From an uncultured Acidobacteriota bacterium (GTDB lineage Bacteria; Acidobacteriota; UBA6911; RPQK01): a stretch of DNA of 64,000 bases. Where the stretch lies: NCBI GenBank assembly GCA_963744645.1, contig CAVUUN010000021.1:2122-66121 (forward strand), read 5' to 3'. Below, piece after piece: positions 630-10,434 of the stretch. Within the stretch, counting starts at the first letter, position 1. Each line of letters begins with the position of its first letter. The notes beneath the pieces are model-generated. The model was given only the letters and a program-made list of their open reading frames with translations. It was not told the origin of the DNA and made no database searches. The translations under genes were made by a program, and so were the position numbers.

Positions 630-706
630 CGGGGCATGGCGCAGCCTGGTAGCGCACCTGCTTTGGGAGCAGGGAGTCGGGGGTTCAAATCCCTCTGCCC
701 CGACCA
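630..706 (+). tRNA. tRNA-Pro (anticodon TGG), CCA encoded
   Basis: 77-nt cloverleaf: acceptor CGGGGCA/TGCCCCG, anticodon arm CCTGC-TTTGGGA-GCAGG, T-loop GGTTCAAATCC, 3' ACCA. Confidence 0.97.
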
Positions 707-975
707 GCTTAAAGCACTTGATTTTCAAACACTTCCTCCGTTTGCATCTCACCCGCCGAACAGGCGTCGAAAACGCTCTGTAGATAAATCTGTAGTGAGT
801 CAGATCCCAAAACAGCGAGGCTGAACGTCTCGGACGCGCCCGAAACAAGCTTCGCAGAGAGGCAACATGCTGTTTTTATAGGGGTTACAGAAGTGGCGCG
901 TTCGCGGCCTCTCGCCCGCAGTCCCTAGACGCCCTGCACAGAAGGCAGGCGTGCGGCGCGGATAAACAGATGTGG
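707..975 (+). repeat. Post-att leader, copy 1 (diverged homologue of 4871-5140)
   Basis: Shared blocks in the same order: TGTAGATAA-T-TGTAG, CTGTTTTTATAG, GGCGCGTTCGCGGCCT-TCGCCCGCA, AGACGCCCT. Confidence 0.8.
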
Positions 976-1043
976 ATGCGTCTGAAGCGCATCCGCAACG
1001 TCCGCACAATGGCGTACAATGTGCCTTGAGGAGGGCCGCTAGA

Positions 1044-2185
1044 GTGCGTGTCAATGTCAGGCCGGCACTGCTCCGCTGGGCACGTGCACGAGCCGACTTG
1101 GATGCCGACATGTTGATTCCCCGTTTCCCCAAGCTCTATGCCTGGGAGAGCGGAGAGGCGCGCCCACGTTGCGACAACTCGAAAGTTTTGCCGCAGCAAC
1201 TCACACCCCGATCGGTTACCTCTTCCTCCCGGCCCCGCCCACTGAACGAATCCCGATCCCCGATTTCCGTACGGCCGCACACCGGCGGCACCGACATCCC
1301 AGCCCGGACCTGCTTGACACTATTTACCTCTGTCAACAGCGCCAGGACTGGTACCGCGATTTTGCGCGGACCACGAGGGAACGATCGTTGCCGTTTGTCG
1401 GTTCCGCGGGACCGAGCGACCGAGTTGTGGAAACTGCAGCCCACATACGACGGGCGCTCGGGTTCGATATCGAAGAGCGACGCCAACTACCGACCTGGAC
1501 GGACGCTTTGCGGCGCTTCATCGGCCAGGCGGACGCTCTCGGGATACTGGTCATGGTGAGTGGAGTAGTAGGCAGTAACAACCGGCGCAAGCTCGACCCA
1601 CAAGAATTTCGGGGTTTCGCTCTATCCGACGATCTAGCCCCTTAGTGTTTGTCAACGGCGCCGACACCAAGGCTGCGCAGATGTTCACTTTGGCGCACGA
1701 AATGGCCCATATCTGGCTGGGCCAATCGGCAGTTTCTGATGCAGAGCCCAGCGAAACTCCCAGCCACAATATCGAGCGGTGGGCGGATCAGGTCGCAGCC
1801 GAGTTGCTGGTTCCGATCAATATTTTCCGAGCGCGAATATCAACCGGTCGCCAACCTAAGAGCGGATCTCGATCGTCTCGCACGAAGATTCAAAGTGAGC
1901 ACCCTCGTCATCCTCCGGCGGATGCATGACGTGGGCGGGCTAGAAGGCGATGACTATTGGGCGGCTTACCAGGCAGAGCTGGAACGGTTGCAGGCGCTTC
2001 CGCGAGGCAGTGGCGGCGACTTCTACCTGACACTCGGCGCAAGAGCCAGCAAACGATTTGCACGGGCGCTGGTCATAAGCACTTTGGAAGGAAGGTCTTC
2101 GTTCACCGAGGCGTTTCGATTACTCGGGTTCAAGAAGATGACCACATTTCGGGAGTTGGGACAGAACCTCGGGTTGATGGTCTGA
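1044..2185 (+). CDS. XRE-HTH plus ImmA/IrrE (peptidase M78) protein, antitoxin-like; about 3 frameshifts
   Basis: Stitched from ORFs 972-1559, 1169-1645, 1645-1929 and 1649-2185: PALLRWARAR...PIPDFRT...TLAHEMAHIWL (HExxH)...ARRFKVS...EAFRLLG. GTG start follows GAGGAGG. Confidence 0.85.
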
Positions 2186-2678
2186 TGCCCTACCTGATCG
2201 ATGCGAATGTTTTCATAGCGGCGAAGAACCTGCACTATGGATTGGATTTTGTCCCGCTTTTTGGGACTGGTTGGTTCAGCAGAACCGACGCGGGACCGTC
2301 TTCAGCATTGAGAGAGTCGGCGACGAAGTACTGGCGTTGGCCGACGAGTTGTCGCAATGGGCGCAGGCCCGAGGTGATGCGTTCTTTCTTCGACCGGACG
2401 CTTCAATACTCCCATCTTTAGCAACGGTCAGCCACTGGGCAACGGGTCAAAACTACGAACCTGCCGCGGTCAGCACCTTTCTTCAGGTCGCCGATTATTA
2501 CCTGGTGGCTCAAGCTCACGCCGGACGTCATACGGTCGTGACACACGAAATTCCGTCTGGCTCCCAACGGAGAATCAAGATTCCCGACGCGTGTATTGGC
2601 CTCGGGATCAGGTGCATCACACCGTTTGAGATGCTGCGGGGTGAACGGGCGCGTTTTGTCCTTGGTACGAGGCCCTGA
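2185..2678 (+). CDS. DUF4411 family PIN-like protein, putative toxin; frameshift near 2250
   Basis: MPYLIDANVFIAAKNLHYGLDF...SIERVGDE...ADYYLVAQA...VVTHE...IKIPDAC; TGATG stop/start overlap with the upstream gene. Confidence 0.85.
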
Positions 2679-2741
2679 CTGCTGCCTTGCGGGTCGGTCA
2701 CGTCGTCAGCCTTCATTAATACAATGATTTGCGTGGCCCTC

Positions 2742-4683
2742 ATGGATGCTTTAGCGGCAGTGCAGAAGCCTCTCTCCAAGCTCCTCCTACTCCTCAAGAC
2801 TTCGTCAGCAAATCGGAGGACGCGAGTCGGTGCTTGGTTCAGCAGAAGGTCGAAGTCGGCGCAAAGGCGCTATCGCAGACTGGTCTGGGAGCTTCGGCGG
2901 CGGCGGATTCGGCCGCGAGCTAGGCAATTCCTGATCAGGAACTGGGGCTTCTTAATGTTCAGATATTAGTTCTGGTGCTCTGGCGGGCACCGTCTTGCCC
3001 AATCTACTGGGGATAAGCTTTGAGACGGCGATTGTCTTGTTGCCGACGGTGGCAGGGATCATTGCCGGTTTGCTCGGGATCTTAATTGCCATCTTGATTC
3101 TGGCTTTCGAACGGGCCTCATCGACCTTCCCCACCTATTCAGTCCGGATTATTTTCCGGAACCCTTATTCCGCCCGAATACTGACCCTCTCGGTTCTTTC
3201 GCTTTCATTTCTCTTGGCACGATTGGACCAATGCGAACACCGCTTGATCCTGCAAGTGTTTCGCGCTGCCAAGTGGCCTTGGCCTATTTTGCCTTTTCCT
3301 ATTATTCTTCATTTACTACCTGTGGGCACTGTTACCCGAGCCAGCGTGCACACCTATATAGTAGAGCTGGTACGCCAAATCCCGTGGGGCGAACCCGAGT
3401 TGTTTACCCTCCGAAGAACGCCCGGACCGCCCGAAGAATGGGAGCTGGCACGGAGCCAGCCGTCGCGGGTTCTTGTGGAGGCTGGCATTCGCTCCATCCG
3501 CCAACAGGATCACTTGACGGCTCGCCACATCCTGTTAACGCTGAAGACCCAACTCTTGGACCATCTGAGGCATTTTCCGGACGCCGACGCCCGGGCCCGG
3601 ATCAACGCTTATTTGTTCGCGTGGCAAAACCGATGGCAAAAAGAAGCTAGGCGAGCCGACGGCGTGGGAGTGCTGTACTCAGCTACTTGACGGACATCGG
3701 CGATGTGTACGAGGCAACTGCTTCTCTGAGATCGAGTCGGGGCGGCCCTCATTGAGTTCAATGAATTCGTCAAGGAGGAATTGGAAGCGCTCGTTGAGAC
3801 GAAGACCAGTTCAAGCAGCCCTAGAGGCGGGGATAAGAACGTGGAACGGGCGGCGGAGAAAAACTTGACTCTCAACGTCCCTCCAGAAGACGAACTGGTG
3901 AGTCCTGCAGCATCAGTGGGGCAAGAAGCCGACGAATAAGGATTCGAACCCCGATGCTGACTTCGATGGATGCAGCTTACGAGAGCTACCTCGATATTTA
4001 CCTGCATCGCTCGGCGCGCGATCAAAACGAACCGCGAATCTGTCGTGTCGACGTGTCCGCTTCTCGCCCTGTCCCACATCGCTTCTCTGGCAGCCACAGC
4101 TCAACATCTTCAGGAAACTCCAGAAGAAAGACGTGCTTTGGAAGAGTGTACTCGCTGCAAGCCTTGTTATGGCAAGAAGCGGCGGATTTGAACTTCTCGC
4201 TCGGCTACTTCGCCTTCAATTGGATTTTCATCATCGATTTAATTCAAGCAGGGCAAAGCGATAGTCGAATTTCCTGAAACGCTCTAGGGCTGCACTGCAG
4301 TCTCTGGCGGGTAAGGGGAAACTCCGACCAGGCGACCATCAACGAACTGGGAACCATCGGCCGGTCTTGCGCGAGTATTGACAGCCCGCTTTCGACTGCC
4401 GTGATCAAGTACGTATTCGAGGTCTTCGACAGTATTCGGCTAACACTTGAGCCTCAGCTGGAAACCCGGAGTGCGTTGGCCTATATCGAGGTCAGAGAGC
4501 AGGCGAAAATCGGTCCGTAAGTGGCTGGAAGACAGTCGACCGCCAAGAGACGACCTGGAAGATCTAACGGAAAAAGGAGGCAGTACGTCGCACGATTCCG
4601 GGGCTGTGGATGAAAGCGCACTGCAACCGCCCCCAAGTATCCGACTCCAGGTTCCAGACAAGGCTGCGGCTGGCTCTCCCTGA
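2742..4683 (+). CDS. Hypothetical membrane protein with DUF2254-like N-terminal TM region; several frameshifts, ends approximate
   Basis: TVAGIIAGLLGILIAILILAFERASSTFPTYSVRIIFRN resembles the DUF2254 TM motif; coding-like fragments continue (2995-3690, 3954-4277, 4447-4683). Confidence 0.5.
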
Positions 4684-4695
4684 GGCTCTCGAAGC

Positions 4696-4802
4696 TGTAG
4701 ATAATTTTGTAGTGAGTCAAATCCCGAAAGCTCAACAAAGCTCAATAAGTTTCAACAAGCTGGCTGTAAGTGCTTGAAAAATAAAACCTGATTTTTCAAG
4801 CA
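4696..4802. promoter_or_regulatory. att-flanking arm region: TGTAGATAATTTTGTAG motif, AAGCTCAA repeats and TGCTTGAAAA/TTTTCAAGCA inverted repeat
   Basis: The 17-mer occurs at 779-795, 4696-4712 and 4944-4960; the inverted repeat lies just before the att core. The integrase arm-site role is inferred. Confidence 0.55.
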
Positions 4803-4821
4803 TTTAGCCGCTTCCGGGTTT

Positions 4822-4870
4822 CTGCTTTGGGAGCAGGGAGTCGGGGGTTCAAATCCCTCTGCCCCGACCA
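4822..4870 (+). repeat. 49-bp direct repeat of the tRNA-Pro 3' part (attR-like core; partner 658-706)
   Basis: CTGCTTTGGGAGCAGGGAGTCGGGGGTTCAAATCCCTCTGCCCCGACCA is identical at 658-706 and 4822-4870. Confidence 0.95.
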
Positions 4871-5140
4871 AATCACACCGCTTGATGTTCAACCACTTCC
4901 AGCGATTATGCTGCGCCCGCCGACAGGTGTCAAAACGAGCGATTGTAGATAATTTTGTAGGTAGGCAAATCCAAAACTGACCAGGTTGGGCATCTCCGGC
5001 GCGCGTCCGAAGCAACCATCGGAGAGAGTCAACATCCTGTTTTTATAGCAGTTAACGGGCTGGCGCGTTCGCGGCCTGTCGCCCGCAATTCTCAGACGCC
5101 CTTCACAAAAGACAGGAGCGCGGCGACATGGTAAACGGTT
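4871..5140 (+). repeat. Post-att leader, copy 2 (diverged homologue of 707-975)
   Basis: Same ordered blocks as copy 1, directly after the second att core. Confidence 0.8.
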
Positions 5141-5173
5141 TGTGCCAGCGTCCGACCGAAGCCTGGTCAGCTG

Positions 5174-7892
5174 TTACTCATCTCTGAGCACGACGTTCGG
5201 GTCCAGCCGCGATGCGCGCCACGCCGGCAGCCAACTGGCGACCACCGCCACGGCCGTAATCGTCGCGATCACAAAGGCGATCGTCACGGTATCTGTCGGT
5301 TGCACACCAAACAGCAGGGACGCAATCAGCCGATTTACGGCAAGCGCGCCTGCAAGGCCAATGGTGACACCCATCGCCGTGACCTGAAGCCCTTGCTTCA
5401 TGATCTGTGTGAGCACGTGGGAGCGAGCTGCACCGAGGGCGACCCGAATGCCGATCTCGCGCCGGCGCTCCGTCACCATGTAGGAGAGCACACCGTAAGT
5501 GCCGATGGCTGCCAGTAGCAGCGCCAGTCCGGCAAAAGCGCCCAATAGCTGCGCCAGGAGTCTCGGCCGGCGAATCGATTCGGCGAACACCGAATCCATG
5601 TCGCGAAGCCGCACGACGGGAACCGCGGCGTCCACTTCCCGAACCACTCGCTCGATCGTCCCTGACAGCGCGGCCGGTGGCAGCGTCGTCCGCATCACCA
5701 CATTCATACTCGGCGGAGAGACGCCGTGCTGGTCAAGGGATACGTAAAGTTCAGTTCCTGCCGGGCGCTCCACCCCGCGCTGCCTGACGTCCTTGGCTAC
5801 TCCGATCACCGTATGCCAGACATCATCGGTAGCGCCAAACGAACCACCCGGAGGCCGCAGACGCTGGCCAATCGGGTTCTGCCCCTTCCAGATCCTTTTC
5901 GCCAAAGTCTCATTGACGATGGCCACCTTGCCTTGCGACGCGTTGTCGGTTCGCTCGAAGCCGCGGCCGGCGACGATCGGGATGCCCATCGTCCCGAAAT
6001 AGTCGCCCATGACGAATTGGTAGTAGTCGATGATTTCAAAGGGCCTTCCATCGTCGGAGGTGTAGTTCTCGATAGGAGTAGCGATCGCATCTGGAGTTCG
6101 ATTCGGCGGCAGACCCGACATGGCAACCGTTCCCAGCACGCCCGGTACGGAGCGAAGCCTGTCGAGGACGCGCTGATATGCCTGCGCGCGTGTGTCGGGA
6201 TCTGAATTCGCCATTGGCAATGTCATCGAGAACGTCACCAGCCGCGACCGGTCAAATCCTGCATCGATCCTCGTGAGGTTGTAGACTGTCTGAACTAGCA
6301 AACCCGCTCCGATAACCAGCATCACCGCGAAAGCGACTTGGGCTATCACAAGTCCACGACGGGCGTAATGACGCCAGGCGCCGCTGGCACCCCTTCCGCC
6401 CTCCTTGAGTGCAGTCGCCATGCTACTCGTTCTCCCGCGCCCGAGCGACACGAACCCGAAAAGCAGGGCCGTCCCAGTCGAGAGGCCGAGCGCAACCAGC
6501 AGAACGGGCAAATCGATCGTAAGCTCACTCGTCCGTGGGATGCTAGTCGGGTAAGCACGGATCAGCGCCCGCACGCCAGCGCTGGCTAGCCACAGACCCA
6601 GAATGCCACCGGCTCCGGACATCACCGCACCTTCGGTTACCGCCTGCCGGAGCAGCCGGCCGCGGCTGGCGCCGAGAGCAGTGCGCAGTACAAACTCACG
6701 TCTGCGTGACCCGGCGCGAGCCATCACCAAGTTTGCAAGATTCGCGCAGACGATGAGCAGCACGAATCCCACGGCGGCCTGCAGAACCCAGATCGGCCGG
6801 CTGGAACTCCCAACGATCGCGTCCTGTAACGCCCGCAATTGGAGGGTGTGGTCTATTGCGCGCACGGGACGGTTCGTGGGGACATGGTCTTTCGTGCCGA
6901 CACGCTCGCCCCAGTCTTCGACGAATGCGTTCAGCTCCGTCTGTGCCGCCTCGAAGGTGACGCCGTCTTTCAGTCGCGCAACGACGTATAGGACGTGGGC
7001 CTCGCGTTGCCGGGCCGTATTCGGGTGGAGCCAGAGGGGCAACCAAACCTGGGTGTGGTTATCCATGACGTCGGCCCCGGGTGGCATAATGCCAACGATT
7101 TCGTGGGGGCGGCCCTCGATTTCCACCTTTTGTCCAACGAGCGGTCGTCCTCCAAATGCCGTTCGCCACAATTCGTGCGAGAGAATTGCGATCGGTGGCG
7201 GTAGCGTCCCGGTCCAACGCGCGGTTTCTTCGTCACTGAAGAACCGTCCCTGCTCCGGCTGAATACTGAGCGCCTTGAGCAAATGTGCATCGACGGAGAT
7301 CGAGCGCACCCGCAGAGGTCGATCCCCGGCCGTGAGGTTGACCTCGCCGGTTGTGTACGCCGCGCCGCCGGTCGAATAAGCGCCAACCGCCGCGAACGAC
7401 TGGTTCATCTGGCGGAACTCCGTGTACTCTGGCGCAGAGAGCGCATTTCGGGTGCCCCCAGTGGCCGGAGATTCTGCGGTCAGATACATCAGCTGATCGG
7501 GTTTTGGATAGTCGAGGGGCCGCAGCAGCACTCCATGCACGATCGTGAAAATGGCAATGTTTGCTCCGATCCCAAGCGCCAGCGTGGCGACGACAACTCC
7601 TGTGAACCCTGGACTCTTCGCTAAAGACCGAATCGTGTAACGTACGTCTTGTACAAGATCCTCGACAAAGTTTACACGGCGCATATCCCGGCACTCCTCC
7701 TTGTATTGCGCGATGCCTCCGATCATGCGCTGCGCGGCCCGGCGGGCCTCCTCGGGCGGCATACCGGATGAAATGTTCTCTTCAATGAGCTGATCCAGGT
7801 GGAAACGAAGTTCGGCTTCGAGCTCGAACTCGACATTCGGACGGCGGCAACAGCGATCGAAGCCGCAAACGGGCTTTGTCTAAAATCCGCAT
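5174..7892 (-). CDS. ABC transporter permease, duplicated MacB/FtsX (acidobacterial ADOP type); frameshift near 7846
   Basis: ELRFHLDQLIEENI..GMPPEEARRAA, TLALGIGANIAIF, RRREF/RRREIGIRVALGA twice, PAWRASRLDP. True start MRILDKARLRL at 7892. Confidence 0.92.
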
Positions 7893-7894
7893 TG

Positions 7895-8225
7895 CTAAGC
7901 CTCCTGGACCACTATGTTGATGGCCGTCGACAGACGAGCCCAGTTTGCCAATTCCCTTTCCAGTTGCTTCCGTCCCGAACGCTGTAAGGGAGTAGAACTT
8001 TGCCATTCGCCCGGTCTCGGTCGGGCGCCACTCGGCCTTGATCCAGGCCTGCTGCTCCAGACGGTGTAGCGCCGGGTACAGGGATCCCTGCTGGACCTGG
8101 AGAGCTTCTTGTGAAACCTGCTGGATGCGCTTGGCGATCGCCCAGCCGTGTTTGGGTTCGAGCGAGATGGTCTTGAGGATCAAGAGATCGAGAGTGCCTT
8201 GGACAAGATCGGTTGGCTTTGCCAT
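7895..8225 (-). CDS. PadR family transcriptional regulator; one frameshift near 7980
   Basis: QGTLDLLILKTISLEPKHGWAIAKRI...GSLYPALHRLEQQAWI...KFYSLT; the corrected frame ends ...INIVVQEA* two bases before the permease start. Confidence 0.92.
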
Positions 8226-8244
8226 ATGCCTAGATTACCAACAA

Positions 8245-8261
8245 TTGTAGACGATCTACAA
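8245..8261. promoter_or_regulatory. Palindrome TTGTAGA-CGA-TCTACAA, candidate PadR operator
   Basis: Perfect 7-bp inverted repeat 20 bp upstream of the padR start; a half-site (CCTAGA) abuts the start codon. Confidence 0.6.
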
Positions 8262-8646: not shown

Positions 8647-10166
8647 GGAGGAGGGAAACAGGGGGGAGGAGGGAAACAGGGGGGGACGGAGTTCTATTTT
8701 CCTCCCGAGATCGGCAGATCCTCAGCCAGGAGGCCAAAAACTGCGGCGGTTCCGGGGACCGCCTGGCCTACGCGTTATTCAAGTTCCAATTGGCGCTGGC
8801 CGCGGGAGTTATCACCGGCGGCAGGCACGATAGGGGACGGAGTTCTTTTTTGCGGATGTTTGGAGCAGAAAAGTTCGTATTTTTCGCGGCTCGAGCGTTA
8901 TTAGCTATGCGCAGGTTTGAATGCGCCTGCGCAAGGAGCGCGCGATGGCGAGAATGCCGCGAGGAATCGAACTGGACCGGGAGGGGCAGTACCACCTGCG
9001 CGGGCAGGCGGCTGGCCGCAAGGGCCACTACCCGCTTGCCCGGAAGGAAAACGCCCGCAAACTGGTGGAGATTATTGGCCACTTCACCGCCCTGTACTTC
9101 TGCGCGGTGGCAGGCCTGGAAGTGATGGGCTCCCACTACCACCTGGTCTGCCGGTTCCTGGCTTTCCGGGCGCTCAGCCAGGAAGAACTTCTGAAGCTCG
9201 CCCAAGCTTTCTATCCCGGCCCGTACCAGCCCTACCTGGAGTGGGGGCCGGCCGAGTGGGAACGGTTCAACCGGCGCCTGTTCAACGTCTCCGAGTTGAT
9301 GCGCAACATCCAGCAGGCGTTCACCCGGTGGTACAACGACAAGCACCAGAGCAAGGGCTCTTTCTGGGCGGGCCGATTCCGCTCCACGGAGTCCGACAAT
9401 CTGGTGGAGACGGTGTACTATGTCGAACTCAACGCCGTGAGGGCGGGGCTGGTCACCCGTCCCGAAGCCTGGCGTTACTCTTCGGCGTGGATTCGAAAAC
9501 ACGGCGAGGCGGCCGGTCTGATGCCCCTCACTCAACTCCTGGACACCGCCGACGCGGTCGAGGCCGACCGGCTTTATTGGGCGGGCCTGTACTGGAGGGG
9601 GACGCAGTCGAGCAAGGAGAACAACGCCTTAATTCCGATGGAGTTGGCGGAGCGGATGGCGCGCGGGACGTTCGAGCGGGGCTGTTACCTGACCCGCCGG
9701 GATCTCCTGACCCGTGGCCGCAGGGTCGGAACCCGGGAAGCGATTGAAGCCGCGCTGAAGACGCTCCGGGAGCGGGGCGTCTACCGGCGCAGATTGAATC
9801 CCCTCCCGGTAGGCGTAGGCGAACTTTACGCGCTTCGGGAGATTCGCCGCAGCCACTTCGGCGTTTGAACACCCTCGGTCGCCGACGGGATTTCCCAAAC
9901 TGCGACAACGCCAGGACGCCATGCAACCCGTCCTGCCGCTTCCTCCGCTCTTGGTCTCGTTTCGTCTCACGGCTATCCCGTTTCGCCGTTTTGGCCCGGC
10001 AAGCTGAAGCGTTCGCCTACGCGCACGCACAGGACTTAGCCATCGCCGGGTGGGGAAAATAGAACTCCGTCCCCTCTTCTCGCAGCCCCGTCGGATGGTG
10101 GTCCCCGGCTATGCTGGATGGGGGAAAATAGAACTCCGTCCCCTGTTTCCCCCCCTGTTTCCCCCC
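8647..10166. mobile_element. RAYT-like element with doubled inverted end repeats
   Basis: GGGGACGGAGTTCT(A/T)TTTT at 8682-8702 and 8833-8851, with inverted copies at 10054-10074 and 10123-10143, around a Y1 transposase. Confidence 0.8.
8945..9868 (+). CDS. HUH (Y1) transposase, REP-associated (RAYT) type
   Basis: MARMPR..YHL..., MGSHYHL (HUH), FTRWYN...GSFWAGRFRS, YVELNAVRAGLV..PEAWRYSS; AAGGAG RBS before the ATG at 8945. Confidence 0.88.
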   Translation: MARMPRGIELDREGQYHLRGQAAGRKGHYPLARKENARKLVEIIGHFTALYFCAVAGLEVMGSHYHLVCRFLAFRALSQEELLKLAQAFYPGPYQPYLEWGPAEWERFNRRLFNVSELMRNIQQAFTRWYNDKHQSKGSFWAGRFRSTESDNLVETVYYVELNAVRAGLVTRPEAWRYSSAWIRKHGEAAGLMPLTQLLDTADAVEADRLYWAGLYWRGTQSSKENNALIPMELAERMARGTFERGCYLTRRDLLTRGRRVGTREAIEAALKTLRERGVYRRRLNPLPVGVGELYALREIRRSHFGV

Positions 10167-10434
10167 ACTGTTCTGCTCCGTTTTCCAGCCGCGCATGTAG
10201 CTAATGTCAACACAGTAAGCGGGTGCGTAACGCCGTCAGCGCGATATTGCCGTGCGGCCCGAATACCGCTGACAAGCACTCTGTGCGCGGCTCTTAACCG
10301 CAGCGTTATATGCGCGGTGGCGACGATTTTCGATCGCCAACTGAAAAGAAAGGGATCAGCGAGTATTTGCAATCAACGCTAGACAGTGCGGGGTTGGAGT
10401 GGTAGCTTTCGCCGCTAGGTGGAGGAGTAACGAA

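Follow-up and report, generated by a model that had tools for sequence, protein, structure and literature searches.

The tRNA-Pro(TGG) locus

The window analyzed here is the whole stretch of 64,000 nucleotides (64 kb) from an uncultured Acidobacteriota bacterium, and the subject is a core-to-core interval of 4,164 bp (707-4870), hereafter element 1, which begins directly behind a tRNA-Pro(TGG) gene and ends with a second copy of the 3' part of that gene. The window element is a dead relic, that is, a decayed integrative element, and its ends carry the attachment module of a family of small gene units found in Acidobacteriota. The tRNA-Pro(TGG) gene is the sole tRNA located in the window by ARAGORN and Rfam; it is the attB host gene, and the element restores its 3' part (attL). 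The identity between the two cores runs from the second base of the anticodon stem through the encoded CCA, and the 5' half of the tRNA is absent upstream of the second core, as seen with ARAGORN and by alignment. The features of the locus are as follows.

630-706, + strand, intact tRNA-Pro(TGG) gene (ARAGORN; Rfam tRNA, 65.3 bits)
658-706, + strand, att core A, identical at 49 of 49 positions to 4822-4870
707-975, + strand, leader A, read as the P' arm of element 1 (alignments, motif count)
1044-2185, + strand, pseudogene of the ImmA/IrrE type, with helix-turn-helix and M78 peptidase (Pfam Peptidase_M78)
2185-2678, + strand, DUF4411 (PIN-like) pseudogene (Pfam DUF4411 over two frames, E = 4.6e-40)
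2700-4683, + strand, remains of one or two cargo genes (tblastn frame switches, DNA alignment, faint DUF2254 matches)
4691-4821, + strand, putative P arm of element 1, 131 nt
4822-4870, + strand, att core B, within a P-core-P' junction
4871-5140, + strand, leader B, read as a P' arm and the sole surviving piece of an older second element
5167-8256, - strand, PadR and ADOP (MacB-like) permease module (Pfam), adjoining the stump of leader B

The two leaders are homologous. Positions 707 to ~962 align with 4871 to ~5137 with few short indels (76% identity over 250 nt, E = 1.4e-40, BLASTN), and the homology of leader B stops at ~5140. A conserved 27-mer of the leader has two matches in the window against an expectation of 0. 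The original prediction for this DNA had described an exact 49-bp duplication of the tRNA 3' end as att cores, homologous leaders behind both copies, and no recombinase in or near the interval, and all of this was confirmed, the last by a six-frame Pfam scan and the flanking open reading frames (ORFs). It had also proposed two related elements lying head-to-tail, which is borne out, with the second reduced to a stump of 270 bp.

A 17-nt motif, TGTAGATAAWTYTGTAG, which had gone unnoticed in that first reading, occurs three times in the window compared with 0.00 expected. Two copies, at 779 and 4944, lie inside the leaders, 72-73 nt past each core, and the third, at 4696, lies 93 bp upstream of core B; all three share one orientation. 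In leader A the longer arm motif (TGTAGATAAATCTGTAG...CAGATCC) occupies 779-807, and it is found at 4944-4972 in leader B and at 4696-4724 in the P arm of element 1. The same P arm contains a hairpin with an 11-bp stem, in which 4772-4782 pairs with 4791-4801 (a self-complementary match), and leader A has more conserved blocks at ~716-736 and 925-958. No further copies of the core, the leader or the arm were found in the 64 kb. Judged from this arrangement, the leader would be the P' arm of an attP-like module together with a cargo-proximal region, the module of ~280 nt consisting of a P arm with motif and hairpin, the tRNA core, and a P' arm with the motif again.

Decay of the cargo and an intact sister element

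The genes between the cores are broken in many places. The ImmA pseudogene contains single-base frameshifts near 1163, 1642 and 1827 (indels relative to L013, a sister element described below), and the protein rebuilt across these three frameshifts has 87-90% identity to intact 380-aa homologs. The DUF4411 pseudogene has one frameshift near 2247, so the two genes together contain at least four. The remaining 2 kb (2700-4683), corresponding to a DUF2254-like membrane protein and a downstream ORF, is heavily decayed, with ~25 frame-breaking indels relative to L013. Since large genes outside the interval are intact, the frameshifts represent decay of element 1 and not assembly noise. The active array envisaged in the original prediction is not what the window contains.

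The closest ImmA homolog lies on L013, a 4,234-bp contig (NCBI GCA_041890195.1; equal to L016) of the metagenome-assembled genome (MAG) Acidobacteriota SBS.BIN.3. L013 aligns end to end with 658-4858 of the window at 83% identity, and its order is core, leader, ImmA (the 380-aa homolog), DUF4411 (164 aa), DUF2254-like ORF, a further ORF, P arm with motif, and core. Its leader is 68% identical to that of element 1, its P arm 88.5% and its genes 88-90%. The ImmA and DUF4411 genes of L013 are intact, and no recombinase was found in it. Since L013, with ends like those of element 1, keeps ImmA and DUF4411 intact and lacks an integrase, the integrase-less form predates the decay seen in the window. 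The contig starts with the last 7 nt of a P arm followed by the core and ends with the core, so that a P arm-core-leader junction exists in the SBS.BIN.3 sample.

L019, from the same MAG, starts at a P arm and core, passes through a degenerate leader and the initial 220 nt of ImmA, and runs on into nickel/cobalt transporter genes. It represents an older, truncated copy that closes the array distally and corresponds directly to leader B. The flanks of L086, the only full tRNA-Pro recovered from the SBS.BIN.3 assembly, and the distal flank of L019 have neighbors that differ from those in the window. The integrase-less unit thus occurs in two genomic contexts, which argues that the unit itself has moved. 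A chromosomal contig of this MAG (L017) also holds fossil att sites at 3951-3997 and 4292-4470, with two degenerate tRNA-Pro cores of 88-91% identity that lie 470 bp apart, one of them with a P arm, and no functional tRNA nearby.

The ImmA-DUF4411 pair (976-2682) is a self-contained module that is 84% identical in L007-L012, where it lies in a different context without leader or arms, and the homology begins exactly at the end of the leader (976). In L082, an ImmA homolog with 76% protein identity is likewise paired with DUF4411 and adjoins a type I restriction-modification specificity gene. ImmA homologs on contigs of ~4.1-4.4 kb were considered as further circles and rejected; the two that were fetched showed unrelated contexts, one of them a type I restriction-modification locus, and the contig sizes are therefore coincidental.

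Nature of the leader

The sequence after eleven tRNA-Pro cores was aligned. The full leader of ~260 nt is common to units with differing cargo: in element 1 of the window (WIN_A), L013 and L019 it stands before ImmA, in L024 before an opposite-strand winged-helix regulator, and in L054/L075 before a Ser/Thr kinase. This is the recurrence of one leader before different cargo, behind tRNA-Pro cores elsewhere, that had been put forward as a check. A shorter variant is present in L033, L080 and the attL of L075, and no cargo is left behind leader B (WIN_B). The conserved blocks are TTGATTTTCAA-CACTTCC right after the core, the arm motif, GGTTGAACGTCTC, and GACGCCCTGCACAAAAGACAGGGGTGCGGC near the end. 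The idea of the leader as a shared module thus applies to these blocks, which are constrained, but less well to the leader as a whole, which is the least conserved part of the element.

It might be supposed that leader B is the native flank of the tRNA-Pro gene, copied by imprecise excision or homologous recombination or by a segmental duplication, in which case there would have been one element and no array. L086 and L083-L085, where a full tRNA-Pro is followed by a short P'-like start with the motif and then by ordinary genes, indicate that a motif-bearing flank can look resident. However, in L007 the related tRNA-Pro, which is unoccupied, is followed by unrelated sequence without leader or motif, and for this reason the leader is taken to be element DNA and not a native tRNA flank. 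Full leaders also lie behind P arm-core junctions far from any tRNA 5' half (L024, L033, L080, L013), the stump in L019 carries the element gene ImmA, and the arm motif is common to leader B and the element's own P arm. We consider a native flank very unlikely.

Several other functions of the leader were examined and rejected. As a structured RNA, six leaders gave with RNAalifold -12.4 kcal/mol over 295 columns, with an unfavorable covariation term (+1.2), and at both gathering and permissive thresholds of Rfam only the tRNA passed, with no leader family. As to a leader peptide, no ORF is conserved because indels between the copies break the frames. As to a promoter, the + strand had no match, and the lone sigma-70-like match on the - strand was no more than was obtained with shuffled sequences. 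Exact-pattern scans with two of the conserved leader blocks gave only chance matches of 19-20 nt in IMG/VR and none in GTDB genomes; L013 shows that these two blocks are not invariant.

A family of units in Acidobacteriota

With a search pattern derived from five motif copies, the species genomes of GTDB yielded 6 loci (in Blastocatellia, Bryobacteraceae and further Acidobacteriota), and JGI metagenomes, mostly of soils, yielded 61. Neither the arm-motif pattern nor the core-plus-motif pattern matched in IMG/VR, so no link to phages was seen, and in phage and plasmid collections the only part of the module with BLAST matches was the tRNA core. The loci share one architecture: the motif, the remaining ~100 nt of a P arm of 125-145 nt with conserved blocks and a hairpin, a partial tRNA spanning the anticodon stem to the 3' end, and the motif again 50-72 nt later. 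P arms homologous to that of element 1 are present in >40 loci. In the family motif, ~30 nt are nearly invariant (TGTAGATAATTTTGTAGATGGTCAAATCCTC); they consist of two TGTAGAT heptamers with a 12-bp period (TGTAGAT-N5-TGTAGAT) plus a tail. Both arms, P and P', carry these tandem heptamers in one orientation, with conservation across about 70 loci; we regard the pairs as putative arm-type integrase sites. By core, the loci fall into a tRNA-Pro(TGG) subfamily, a larger tRNA-Arg(TCT) subfamily, and a third with a second type of tRNA-Pro.

A census of the junctions gave 16 of the P-core-P' type, 13 of a full tRNA followed by P' (attL), and ~20 of P-core followed by other DNA (attR-like). These three junction types are what is expected of site-specific integration with tandem accretion and thus speak against a dispersed repeat. 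It could nevertheless be argued that the P-core-P' module is itself the mobile or functional entity, namely a tRNA-derived repeat resembling miniature inverted-repeat transposable elements or short interspersed nuclear elements, a structured RNA, or a regulatory element. The module is highly conserved, occupies many intergenic sites and is never linked to a recombinase, and ARAGORN draws tRNA-like folds of 86-87 nt over the P arm and core in the tRNA-Arg subfamily. However, the half-modules are exactly attL (a complete tRNA with P' only) and attR (P with part of a tRNA, then unrelated DNA), the motif is repeated directly and not in inverted form, and the leader has neither an Rfam match nor a conserved fold. 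This explanation is in our view very unlikely.

With regard to the tRNA-Arg loci (L014 6056-6142, L055 4181-4267, L079 1188-1274, L043 1843-1926 and L052 291-376), ARAGORN folds the end of the P arm and the partial tRNA of L014, L055, L079 and L052 into a cloverleaf of 86-87 nt with an abnormal anticodon loop. The fold may be a matter of chance, or the P arm may mimic the missing 5' half of the tRNA.

Complete units on single contigs have core-to-core distances of 481, 532, 534, 1,128, 1,806, 1,863, 2,031, 3,815, 4,032, 4,164 and 4,356 bp, and in L075 at least three units are arrayed in tandem. The ORFs of complete units encode PD40 fragments, a pyridine-nucleotide disulfide oxidoreductase (Pyr_redox), a zinc-ribbon protein, a cupin, a Trans_reg_C-TPR regulator, a DUF4062-NB-ARC NTPase and SnoaL. 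For all family loci together, a non-redundant set of 124 ORFs of at least 140 aa was compiled, and its most frequent Pfam families are TPR, PD40, MacB_PCD/FtsX (ADOP permeases), Trans_reg_C, Pkinase and extracytoplasmic function (ECF) sigma factors. Clustering of the ORFs revealed two recurrent cargo groups, a kinase/regulator group in 19 loci and ADOP permeases in 12, and no recurrent DNA-mobility enzyme among the clustered ORFs. No description of this family was found in the searchable literature, and a search with the motif string gave only unrelated primer or crRNA strings. Small gene units of Acidobacteria that share this attachment module and never occur with an integrase of their own are described here as a widespread, previously undescribed family.

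Some loci have particular features. The 10.5-kb contig L075 has three tRNA-Pro(TGG)-like genes (1656-1732, 6012-6088 and 10305-10384); the first two are complete, with no P arm between them, and the third, a variant of 80 nt, is aberrant in its 5' half. At least the second of these has an upstream region like that in the window. An ORF-less mini-unit of 481 bp lies between two cores of L075, and the same is seen in L054 at 306-835. L083 and L084 belong to one contig of 1.07 Mb (ENA ctg361874), on which a segment of at least 14 kb with a tRNA-Pro, a P' motif, an AAA_13 ATPase and a DDE transposase is present twice, inverted, ~125 kb apart. In L018 (618-2798) and L023 (3233-5686), a fusion of a primase-like domain and a superfamily 2 (SF2) helicase (726-817 aa) ends just before the P arm and is defence-like, as is the DUF4062-NB-ARC (STAND-type) NTPase that forms the cargo of the L055/L014 unit.

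Searches for a recombinase

In the six-frame Pfam scan of 707-5173, only Peptidase_M78, DUF4411 and faint DUF2254 matches were obtained, and remnants of integrase, transposase or resolvase genes were absent. Nor is there an integrase among the ORFs as far as 17.4 kb downstream, and the gene upstream encodes an ABC ATPase. A phmmer search with E. coli XerD, run without a positive control and therefore weak as evidence, gave no match at E <= 10 in the six-frame translations of the window and all loci. No integrase family is among the 25 top families listed for the 124 ORFs in either Pfam or PHROGs, tables in which a single weak integrase match could go unlisted. Five long loci (L083-L087) were retrieved by a protein-database search with spurious ORFs translated across the module; in the gene tables of their ±10-kb flanks there is no Phage_integrase, and insertion sequence (IS) transposases only, in places. 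Acidobacterial genomes contain many integrase genes (PMC3174227), none of which could be tied to the module in this analysis. An incomplete sampling of some 70 loci, IMG/VR, phages and plasmids likewise yielded no autonomous relative.

One alternative to a mobile integrase-less unit is an ordinary decayed island, in the strict sense of a cis-mobilizable element (CIME), whose integrase was deleted later; leader B would then belong to another island, and the absence of integrases in the family would be a sampling artefact of short contigs broken at repeats. The cargo in the window is plainly decaying, and decay to CIMEs followed by accretion is a documented route to such tandems (PMC5704250). 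The islands of tycheposons, tRNA-targeting elements of Prochlorococcus, also contain degenerate elements and scattered partial tRNAs (bioRxiv 10.1101/2020.12.28.424599). The family contigs are indeed short, and the wealth of integrase genes in acidobacterial genomes fits the same view. However, L013 has the same ends with intact ImmA and DUF4411 genes and no integrase, which places the integrase-less form before the decay. In addition, neither a recombinase nor a fragment of one was found in 11 independent core-to-core units of 0.48-4.4 kb, the five annotated long loci lack an integrase as well, and the arms are strongly conserved across classes of Acidobacteriota, unlike neutral relics. We regard later loss of the integrase as a possible but rather unlikely explanation. 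As for the three findings that the original prediction had named as speaking against itself, the leaders do align, no degraded integrase was found in the interval, and the leader did not turn out to be the end of an integrase-bearing island.

Proposed origin of the tandem

We suggest that the interval is the relic of a two-member tandem array of non-autonomous, site-specific elements at tRNA-Pro(TGG), from a family that is moved by an unlinked integrase; this is in our judgement the probable explanation, held with considerable reserve. As the enzyme is encoded by none of the units, it would have to act in trans. The mobilization in trans that the original prediction put forward is accordingly retained as the most likely mode, and the helper integrase that it implies was not found.

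The order of events would be the following. The older element would have integrated at tRNA-Pro first. Element 1 would have come next, entering the tRNA-proximal att site by recombination of its attP-like module with the tRNA gene, and its entry would have left attL (the tRNA and leader A) on one side and the distal P arm and core on the other. Most of the older element would then have been deleted or overwritten at ~5140-5167, beside the start of the PadR-ADOP module, and element 1 would have decayed last.

The arm sites of lambda-type integrases and the tRNA sublocation classes form the background for the chemistry proposed here. A lambda-type tyrosine integrase encoded elsewhere in the genome would carry out integration and excision. 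Its core-binding domain would sit at the anticodon stem-loop, with strand exchange in the anticodon loop and the stem serving as inverted core sites, its N-terminal arm-binding domain would recognize the tandem TGTAGAT heptamers, and the AT-rich hairpin or bend region may be the site of an accessory factor.

Several points weigh against this explanation. Being pseudogenized, the copy in the window is uninformative on present activity. L013 is terminally redundant, which fits a circle, but also a tandem copy or a break of the assembly graph at the repeated core, so excision is not proven by it, and the leader is only 68% identical between the two sister elements. Most of the family loci are short contigs of 1-4 kb, which biases against seeing a linked integrase, and some members of the family may be large, because L087 and L083-L085 have no second core within 10 kb. 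No cognate integrase was identified anywhere, which leaves mobilization in trans without a named actor.

Comparison with known systems

Nearest among known systems are CIMEs that accumulate by tandem accretion, a behavior known from ICESt1-related elements of Streptococcus (Pavlovic et al. 2004, reviewed in PMC5704250). The window element lies between attL and attR without genes for integration or transfer and so agrees with the descriptive definition of a CIME. The tandem at the 3' end of a target gene, the hybrid internal att site and a recombinase supplied by another element are also shared. However, CIMEs are decay products of recognizable integrative and conjugative or integrative and mobilizable elements, and this derivational part of the definition does not apply here because no autonomous parent was found. 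The units described here also differ in being small (0.5-4.4 kb) and numerous, in sharing a strongly conserved module of ~280 nt across classes of a phylum, and in showing no conjugation-related context. As integrase-less elements between att sites and their tandem accretion are already known as CIMEs (PMC5704250), the suggestion of a candidate undescribed system went too far. The first reading of this DNA is partly supported, in that the structure was largely right and the novelty and activity were overstated.

Tycheposons are cargo elements of Prochlorococcus that target tRNAs and form islands (bioRxiv 10.1101/2020.12.28.424599). They share with the present family arrays that are parted only by partial tRNAs, newcomers that push older elements inward, degenerate remnants with stray partial tRNAs, and cargo that is adaptive or related to defence. 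However, they were recognized in that study by their integrases, and many also have replication genes (primase/helicase), whereas the units here have no integrase or replication module, belong to another phylum, and have no sequence similarity to tycheposons in arms or genes.

The module itself resembles a lambda-type attP. The identity runs from the anticodon stem-loop to the 3' end of the tRNA, a position that falls within the sublocation classes reportedly set out for tRNA-integrating tyrosine integrases by Williams in 2002, the attP is ~280 bp long, the tRNA is regenerated at attL, and short direct repeats occur in both arms in the same orientation. Unlike in lambda-type elements, the integrase gene that normally abuts attP is absent, and the arm motif, at ~30 nt, is of unusual length and hardly varies between subfamilies with different tRNAs. 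Among the features by which tRNA-targeting integrative elements are recognized, the 3' direct repeat and the intact tRNA are present, and an internal integrase is lacking.

The arrays of small, promoter-poor, recombinase-less cassettes with varied cargo and a recombination site of their own at one locus recall integrons. However, the array is headed by no intI, attI or Pc, its upstream neighbor being an ABC ATPase gene, the junctions are attP-like modules with a tRNA core and direct repeats instead of attC hairpins, and the cassettes reach 4 kb with several genes. The integron-like character that had been proposed thus survives as an analogy only, and the junctions are closer to lambda-type attP sites.

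It is tempting to extend this analogy to a cassette system that would run on lambda-type chemistry, in which one unlinked integrase per genome would capture, stack and reshuffle recombinase-less units at tRNA-Pro and tRNA-Arg. Such a system would be a main route for the spread and multiplication of the multi-copy families characteristic of the phylum, namely ADOP permeases with PadR, Ser/Thr kinases, winged-helix-TPR/PD40 regulators, ECF sigma factors and defence genes. We put this forward tentatively, as a proposal that is possible and open to considerable doubt.

Taken alone, the window is of modest significance: it holds what is left of a dead island, which accounts for the duplicated non-coding sequence and the series of pseudogenes. 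At the level of the family, a conserved attachment module marks dozens of recombinase-less units in soil Acidobacteriota and is a promising lead. The commonest cargo (ADOP permeases, kinases and regulators) resembles the paralog groups that are expanded in large acidobacterial genomes, an expansion which has been attributed to ancient transfer and duplication with no specific vehicle identified (PMC3174227). If one unlinked integrase does service these units, it would offer a testable mechanism for the paralog expansion, a second natural system of chromosomal cassette capture besides integrons, and a compact attP/attB pair with which to build genetic tools for this hard-to-manipulate phylum.

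Downstream context

The PadR-ADOP pair next to leader B is a discrete module of 3.1 kb with 90-99% DNA identity to L003-L006, which represent four unrelated contexts, and its homology ends sharply at 5167-5180 and 8222-8256. Its border is likely the boundary at which element 2 was replaced or truncated. In L051, a similar PadR-ADOP pair is bounded by a core fragment (7587-7615) on one side and a P arm (10755) on the other and there forms the cargo of a cassette. L003 is 99% identical to the window only up to 7619, a pattern that suggests recombination among PadR-ADOP paralogs. A search for the empty site through orthologs of the ADOP permease failed; because the pair is a multi-copy module in unrelated contexts, its orthologs give no synteny.

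Further downstream, a RAYT-like gene, a TonB-type outer-membrane protein gene and housekeeping genes follow. The ORF at 8921-9868 (315 aa) has a weak, sub-threshold match to the IS200-like Y1_Tnp family and is surrounded by inverted copies of GGGGACGGAGTTCTATTTTCC (8682-8705 and 8832-8851 versus 10054-10078 and 10121-10147). The region 8682-10147 looks like a REP-associated tyrosine transposase (RAYT) with its repetitive extragenic palindromic (REP) repeats.

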